Of a stretch of DNA of 64,000 nucleotides, positions 30,716-31,053 are shown piece after piece; the stretch's first letter is position 1, and the number at the start of each line of letters is the position of its first letter. Both the position numbers and the translations under genes were made by a program. The notes below the pieces were generated by a model. It did not search any database. It was not told the DNA's origin and saw only the letters and a list, made by a program, of their open reading frames with translations. This DNA is from Escherichia coli (GTDB taxonomy: Bacteria > Pseudomonadota > Gammaproteobacteria > Enterobacterales > Enterobacteriaceae): NCBI RefSeq assembly GCF_003334335.1, contig NZ_QOWQ01000004.1. One strand, given 5' to 3'.

Positions 30716-31053
30716 CGTTTCACTCCATCCAAAAAAACGGGTATGGAGAAACAGTAGAGAGTTGCGATAAAAAGCGTCAGGTAGGATCCGCTAATCTTAT
30801 GGATAAAAATGCTATGGCATAGCAAAGTGTGACGCCGTGCAAATAATCAATGTGGACTTTTCTGCCGTGATTATAGACACTTTTGTTACGCGTTTTTGTC
30901 ATGGCTTTGGTCCCGCTTTGTTACAGAATGCTTTTAATAAGCGGGGTTACCGGTTGGGTTAGCGAGAAGAGCCAGTAAAAGACGCAGTGACGGCAATGTC
31001 TGATGCAATATGGACAATTGGTTTCTTCTCTGAATGGTGGGAGTATGAAAAGT
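30716..31053. promoter_or_regulatory. araBAD/araC divergent control region: PBAD -10 and -35 (30751..30780), araI1-I2 (30777..30814), CRP site (about 30825..30846), araO1 (about 30845..30885), araO2 (31001..31024)
   Basis: Reverse complement reads the canonical pBAD sequence (TAGCATTTTTATCCATAAGATTAGCGGATCCTACCTGACGCTTTTTATCGCAACTCTCTACTGTTTCTCCATACCCGTTTTTTTGGATGGAGTGAAACGATG); sub-site boundaries approximate. Confidence 0.9.

Follow-up and report, generated by a model that had tools for sequence, protein, structure and literature searches.

An araBAD-araC control region identical to that of K-12 and very probably native in an Escherichia coli strain

Introduction

The Escherichia coli DNA analyzed here (64,000 nucleotides, called the window below) includes an intergenic region whose promoter sequence is that of pBAD vectors. 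This raises the question of whether the region is the native control region of the araBAD operon and araC or part of an engineered cassette, and whether its binding sites and the adjoining genes are intact. A preliminary description had regarded the region as canonical, with araI, araO1, araO2 and a CRP site, and as wild-type rather than engineered. From comparisons with reference genomes, vector cassettes and related loci of other genera, it can be concluded with a probability of about 97% that the locus represents native chromosomal DNA of a natural E. coli strain, namely the araBAD-araC control region, and that it is identical to its K-12 counterpart across araD-araC. The feature is the already known textbook arabinose switch, ordinary and unaltered. 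Its value lies in annotation and quality control, as an intact native ara switch of the K-12 allele with exact coordinates for each site.

Results and Discussion

The control region and its neighboring genes

The following genes border on the control region or belong to the same locus:

30716..31053, no strand assigned: divergent intergenic control region between araB and araC, flanked by the araB ATG and the araC ATG
26522..27217, minus strand: araD (L-ribulose-5-phosphate 4-epimerase); TIGR00760, 449 bits
27502..29004, minus strand: araA (L-arabinose isomerase); NF002795, 898 bits
29015..30715, minus strand: araB (ribulokinase), first gene of araBAD; TIGR01234, 943 bits; coordinates equivalent to those of MG1655 b0063
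31054..31932, plus strand: araC (regulator of 292 aa); NCBIfam NF007860 (AraC equivalog), 512 bits at a cutoff of 208

Positions 30716..31053 make up the whole araB-araC intergenic region of 338 bp. At one edge, the araB start codon is the complement of 30713-30715 (CAT on the plus strand); at the other, the ATG of araC begins at 31054. Both genes, araB on the minus and araC on the plus strand, point away from the control region, which confirmed the divergent layout, and the gene order around the locus is the native one (polB-araDAB / araC-yabI-thiQPB).

By megablast, all 338 positions matched E. coli K-12 MG1655 (E = 5e-176), in which the counterpart of the control region is located at NC_000913.3 70049-70386. 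In the alignment, araI, araO and the CRP site were free of substitutions and indels. Hence, the canonical region claimed in the preliminary description is indeed present, with all of its sites unchanged compared to K-12. Matches of 338/338 were obtained with many genomes, including K-12 MG1655, C600 and J53. Among 5426 complete E. coli genomes, the region was found by megablast in 5399, and in 3,931 of them the identity was at least 99%. The likeness to MG1655 extends from the control region to the flanking araD-araC genes and to their order. The genes araD, araA, araB and araC are full-length intact reading frames without a single nucleotide difference from MG1655. For AraC, PDB matches were found to 2ARC, 2AAC and 1XJA (N-terminal domain for arabinose binding and dimerization, residues 1-178) and to 2K9S (C-terminal DNA-binding domain, residues 175-281). 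No sequence evidence against a native locus was found in the analysis of the window.

On a larger scale, collinearity with MG1655 (39332-103333, caiA to ftsQ) extends over the whole 64-kb window at an identity of 99.95%, the differences amounting to 31 substitutions and two 1-bp indels. Of these 33 differences, 24 are located within 1-4622 (caiA, caiT, fixA/fixB) and nine within 4623-64000; the cluster at 1-4622 has the appearance of a recombination patch or of a lineage boundary. Between 20328 and 32245, a stretch covering rluA, rapA, polB, araD, araA, araB, the control region and araC, the window does not differ from MG1655 at all. At 19719, the window contains an extra G, owing to which yabP-yabQ (19140-19946) forms one intact ORF of 268 aa that is split into yabP and yabQ in MG1655. 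The unsplit yabP-yabQ and the differences from MG1655 show that the strain is other than K-12. Over the first 20.5 kb, the identity to natural isolates, which originate from chicken, human and wastewater, is about 100%.

Promoters and transcription start points

The start point of pBAD (+1) is taken to be position 30742 on the minus strand, the A of CCATACCCG, which lies 27 nt upstream of the araB ATG; this position derives from the classical mapping. It is in agreement with the published site numbering and with the location of araO2 "275 bp upstream" (PMC12133099). In that study, a G-to-A change at -77 is reported to create a new -10 element (PMC12133099). In the window, the changed base is the G of TATGCC at 30818, which is -76 in the numbering used here, so that the two counts agree to within 1 nt. 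The elements assigned to the two promoters and to the start of araC are:

30751..30756, minus strand: -10 hexamer of pBAD, TACTGT (-14..-9; exact string)
30775..30780, minus strand: -35 hexamer of pBAD, CTGACG (exact string), overlapping araI2 by 4 bp
30853..30889, plus strand: putative araC promoter pC, with TGGACT (30853-30858), a 17-bp spacer and GACACT (30876-30881)
31040..31043, plus strand: Shine-Dalgarno sequence of araC, GGAG, 10 nt upstream of the ATG; a conserved block amid a variable stretch

In four of the six columns of the pBAD -10 hexamer, conservation across genera reaches at least 95% of the sequences. The start of pC is assumed, following the literature, to lie about 147 bp from the +1 of pBAD, i.e. 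near 30889. The candidate hexamers of pC fit a start at this position and overlap with the araO1 half-sites; both half-sites are identical to K-12 and conserved. A scan of 30600-31200 for consensus promoters and terminators yielded neither a promoter nor a terminator and picked up neither pBAD nor pC. This result is uninformative since pBAD depends on an activator and pC is a weak promoter.

In the ORF list of the window, araC begins further upstream, with an in-frame ATG at 31003 (309 aa), which lies within the araO2/leader stretch; the annotated and conserved start is 31054.

Binding sites for AraC and CRP

Sites were placed by exact-string searches and numbered relative to the pBAD +1 at 30742:

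30777-30793, minus strand: araI2 half-site, TAGCGGATCCTACCTGA (-51..-35; exact string)
30798-30814, minus strand: araI1 half-site, TAGCATTTTTATCCATA (-72..-56; exact string)
30828-30843, no strand assigned: CRP site, TGTGACGCCGTGCAAA (center at -93.5; two mismatches to TGTGAN6TCACA)
30851-30867, minus strand: proximal araO1 half-site, CGGCAGAAAAGTCCACA (-125..-109; exact string)
30872-30888, minus strand: distal araO1 half-site, TAACAAAAGTGTCTATA (-146..-130; found by motif scan with two mismatches)
31009-31025, minus strand: araO2 half-site, GAAACCAATTGTCCATA (-283..-267, center at -275; exact string)

The araI site is composed of two 17-bp half-sites that are arranged as direct repeats with a spacing of 21 bp. 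The same spacing separates the two araO1 half-sites. In the 64-kb window, araI1 is the only match to TAGCN7TCCATA without a mismatch, and its 17-bp sequence is as published in PMC2241862. In PMC11983282, two half-site patterns are given, TAGCxxxTxxxxCCxxA, which is fitted by araI2, and xAxxxxxxxxxTCCATA. The 4 bp that araI2 shares with the -35 hexamer of pBAD correspond to the overlap of AraC and RNA polymerase described there. The CRP site is located upstream of araI1, a placement also found in PMC11983282. Between araO2 and araI1, the distance in register is 211 bp, for which the same paper gives "210 bp".

The preliminary description had placed araO2 at 31001..31024. This interval overlaps 16 of the 17 bp of the site but includes 8 flanking bp, the true half-site being 31009-31025. 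The further claim that araO2 is part of the araC leader proved tenable, provided that pC starts near 30889: the site is found 29-45 bp ahead of the araC ATG, with 29 bp between its end and the start codon, and would occupy about +121..+137 of the araC transcript.

The motif scans of the 64-kb window did not reveal any enrichment, neither for the AraC motif TAGCN7TCCATA with up to three mismatches (368 matches compared to 367 expected) nor for the CRP consensus (154 matches compared to 211 expected). The only standouts of the loose AraC scan were the perfect match at araI1 and a cluster of same-strand matches in the 338 bp. Thus, the basis of the site calls is not motif statistics but conservation together with the identity to the characterized sequence.

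Predicted regulation

Since the region is identical to an experimentally characterized one, the textbook mechanism can be inferred for it. Binding of AraC and CRP and looping of the DNA would then occur in this strain as in K-12, and the arabinose switch would probably consist in a change from araO2-araI1 looping to the occupancy of araI1 and araI2. In the absence of arabinose, one AraC dimer is expected to span araI1 and araO2, thereby looping 211 bp of DNA, and this loop would hold pBAD off and damp pC. When arabinose is present, the dimer would release araO2 and take the adjacent direct repeats araI1 and araI2. As araI2 overlaps the -35 hexamer of pBAD by 4 bp, AraC bound there should recruit RNA polymerase. 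The cAMP-CRP complex at -93.5 would aid the opening of the loop and be required for full activation, while AraC bound to araO1, which overlaps the putative pC, would autoregulate araC.

A similar arrangement is described in PMC11983282 for rhaSR-rhaBAD, which is also controlled by an activator of the AraC family and by CRP. There, two direct-repeat half-sites lie over the -35 hexamer, the CRP site is located upstream and the regulator operon is divergent. Unlike the ara promoter, the rhaBAD promoter (PRha) is presented in PMC11983282 as having neither a distant operator nor repression by a loop.

Conservation of the control region in other Enterobacteriaceae

One genome per species was scanned for the pattern TAGCN7TCCATAN4TAGCN8CCN2A, which gave 107 matches. 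By their AAGAT linker, 46 of them were recognized as ara promoters of Enterobacteriaceae; the remaining matches are scattered over unrelated phyla and look like chance. The control regions of Citrobacter, Enterobacter, Kosakonia, Raoultella, Phytobacter, Trabulsiella, E. albertii and others contain araO2, araO1, the CRP site, araI1 and araI2 in the same order and orientation as the window.

For 44 loci with sufficient upstream sequence, the spacing between araO2 and araI1 was determined by scoring the position of GTCCATA. In 41 of them, the spacing was 209-213 bp, namely 211 bp (23 loci), 212 bp (nine), 213 bp (six), 210 bp (two) and 209 bp (one). Yokenella regensburgei and Enterobacteriaceae UBA5654, a metagenome-assembled genome, have a spacing of 199 bp, about one helical turn less, and in Pluralibacter a large deletion has affected the control region. 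In the two loci with 199 bp, the loss of about 12 bp maps between araO1 and a short conserved island discussed below. As this loss corresponds to about one turn, the helical phasing of araO2 and araI1 is maintained. The distance between araO2 and araI1 is thus held to 209-213 bp or to one helical turn less, as predicted by the looping model.

To the window, 43 Enterobacteriaceae loci were aligned by MAFFT, and conservation was expressed as the fraction of loci matching the window base. The overall identity of the aligned stretch to the window ranged from 62 to 96%. Over the 43 loci, the conservation was 0.98 for araO2, 0.95 for the CRP site, 0.93 for the distal and 0.89 for the proximal araO1 half-site. 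Since the search pattern included none of these sites, their conservation constitutes independent support. By contrast, the values of araI1 (0.88) and araI2 (0.89) are biased because both half-sites formed the pattern. Conservation was low in the loop (30889-31008; 0.43) and in the stretch between araO2 and the ATG (0.48); in these parts, the control regions of other Enterobacteriaceae have mostly diverged, to about 43-48% identity to the window.

Variation within E. coli and the possibility of a decayed locus

Compared to the window, a total of 11 positions are changed in six divergent E. coli alleles (REL606, ST131, Eco-15, WP5-S18, 181.1 and M18). In these six alleles, araI1, the CRP site and araO2 are free of changes. 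In B2-type strains, two central positions of araI2 (-40 and -41) are changed.

In ST131 strain 4433 and in Eco-15, both of the B2 type, araC is annotated with the same start and a length of 846 nt (281 aa), compared to 879 nt (292 aa) in the K-12 type, which implies a natural C-terminal truncation by 11 residues.

Canonical-looking sites might also be retained in a decayed ara locus of the Ara-minus type, in which the system is broken elsewhere. There is precedent for such a loss, as the region is absent from 27 of the 5426 complete E. coli genomes. In E. coli E423 (NZ_CM173464.1), the IS30-like element ISApl1 has inserted into araI of the araBAD promoter at the equivalent of window positions 30786-30800; it sits between araI2 and araI1 and parts the araC/CRP/araI1 side from pBAD. 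In the window, however, araD, araA, araB and araC are intact and identical to MG1655, and the control region contains neither an insertion nor an indel. A decayed locus is therefore very unlikely. For the genes within the window, this reading was rejected; araE and araFGH, which encode transporters, are located outside of the window.

Comparison with pBAD vector cassettes

Still less probable is an engineered araC-pBAD cassette, whether derived from a vector of the pBAD type or from an integrated construct, which would account for a promoter sequence equal to that of pBAD vectors and for the identity of 99.4% to the araC-pBAD of pCAGO and pK-1L-2, but is contradicted by the ends of the cassettes, by the K-12 alleles at 11 positions and by the absence of vector backbone adjoining the region, and was rejected.

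In detail, the cassettes end at the equivalent of window position 30729 in pCAGO and in a further plasmid of 6.5 kb, and at 30743 in pK-1L-2. Beyond this end, they continue with a foreign ribosome-binding or cloning sequence or with what looks like cas9, whereas the window contains the native leader followed by araB, araA and araD. No vector backbone was found next to the region, and the surrounding 64 kb are native chromosome. Moreover, the cassette is the allele of E. coli B (100% identity to REL606). Of its 1294 positions, 11 are not the same as in the window, and at each of these the window has the K-12 base. From +14 of pBAD to beyond araC, the AraC and CRP sites and both promoters of the vector cassette are the same as in the window. 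The differences are a T at 30956, a C at 31038 and nine synonymous changes in araC (31101, 31248, 31407, 31746, 31749, 31752, 31776, 31842 and 31881). For vectors, an araC allele of the MC4100 lineage with nine codon differences from the araC of MG1655 has been reported (PMC7567684).

In pCAGO and pK-1L-2, two araC-pBAD constructs of the plasmid database, the only intergenic differences from the window are those at 30956 (G in the window, T in the vectors; -214) and 31038 (T in the window, C in the vectors; -296). Both are located outside of every known site, and the vector alleles are those of E. coli B REL606. The preliminary description had stated that the pBAD sequence is reproduced base for base; this applies to all of the sites but not to the two positions, at which vector cassettes differ. 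Its assumption of a wild-type origin is borne out by the native continuation into araB, the K-12 alleles at 11 of 11 positions, the native gene order and the matches to natural isolates. From the araB continuation and the alleles at the 11 positions, it follows that the locus represents the native allele of the K-12 type. Apart from this, the 11 positions provide a simple marker to distinguish native K-12 ara DNA from vector contamination in assemblies.

Two reference assemblies contain the same small plasmid as whole contigs, Photorhabdus namnaonensis (NZ_LOIC01000030.1, 6558 bp) and Xenorhabdus szentirmaii (NZ_NIBV01000006.1, 6547 bp). This plasmid carries the araC-pBAD cassette of the E. 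coli B type (the equivalent of window 30729-32022, 100% identical to REL606). Most likely, the 6.5-kb plasmid is a laboratory vector that was left in the assemblies. In the 9.6-kb Klebsiella pneumoniae plasmid pK-1L-2 (NZ_CP072462.1), deposited as originating from a swine isolate, araC-pBAD is fused at +1 to TCTAGA-ATGGATAAGAAATACTCAAT. The fusion presumably corresponds to the start of SpCas9 (MDKKYS...), which it resembles; this would make the plasmid an engineered pBAD-cas9 construct.

A conserved island within the loop

Besides the known sites, one short element in the otherwise variable loop is conserved:

30930..30948, no strand assigned: short conserved island, reading AACCCCGC-N5-AAAAGC in the sense of pBAD

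The island is positioned at about -199..-206 from the +1 of pBAD and, if pC starts near 30889, at about +42..+60 of the araC leader. In 40 of the 42 other Enterobacteriaceae loci possessing an araO2-like site, the distance of its CCGC from araO2 is 70-73 bp, while the loop DNA around it is conserved to only about 43%. No site is known to have been assigned to 30930-30948. It is conceivable that the island is the binding site of another protein or that it acts as a linear signal in the araC leader. That it represents a functional cis element beyond the standard description of the ara switch is nevertheless doubtful, and it may have been described already, e.g. in RegulonDB, EcoCyc or literature before 2000 beyond the scope of the search. 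The literature search yielded no usable description of an araC leader and no usable information on sites for XylR in ara.

A conserved RNA structure was rejected as an explanation of the island, since the alifold energy of the araC leader (30889-31056) was -0.57 and did not differ from that of column shuffles. The leader of E. coli, taken as a single sequence, folds to -44 kcal/mol. In the Rfam scan of the whole window, no family was detected in the control region including the island.

The main figure of PMC11983282 omits P61-209, the stretch holding the island, which is not mentioned in the relevant passages of that paper. According to the sort-seq data presented in the same passages, the mutual information of araO1 was not above background (PMC11983282).

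Repeats and RNA elements in the window

The intergenic region of araD and araA (27231-27496) harbors 3.1 tandem copies of an 85-bp unit that contains a REP sequence, with a match of 96%. In this spacer, the Rfam family naRNA4 (RF02564) was detected twice, at 27277-27342 and at 27362-27427, with scores just above the gathering threshold. Expected RNA elements elsewhere in the window are intact, namely the TPP riboswitch upstream of thiB (sroA region, 36178-36277), SgrS (38034-38260) and the leu operon leader (44240-44389).
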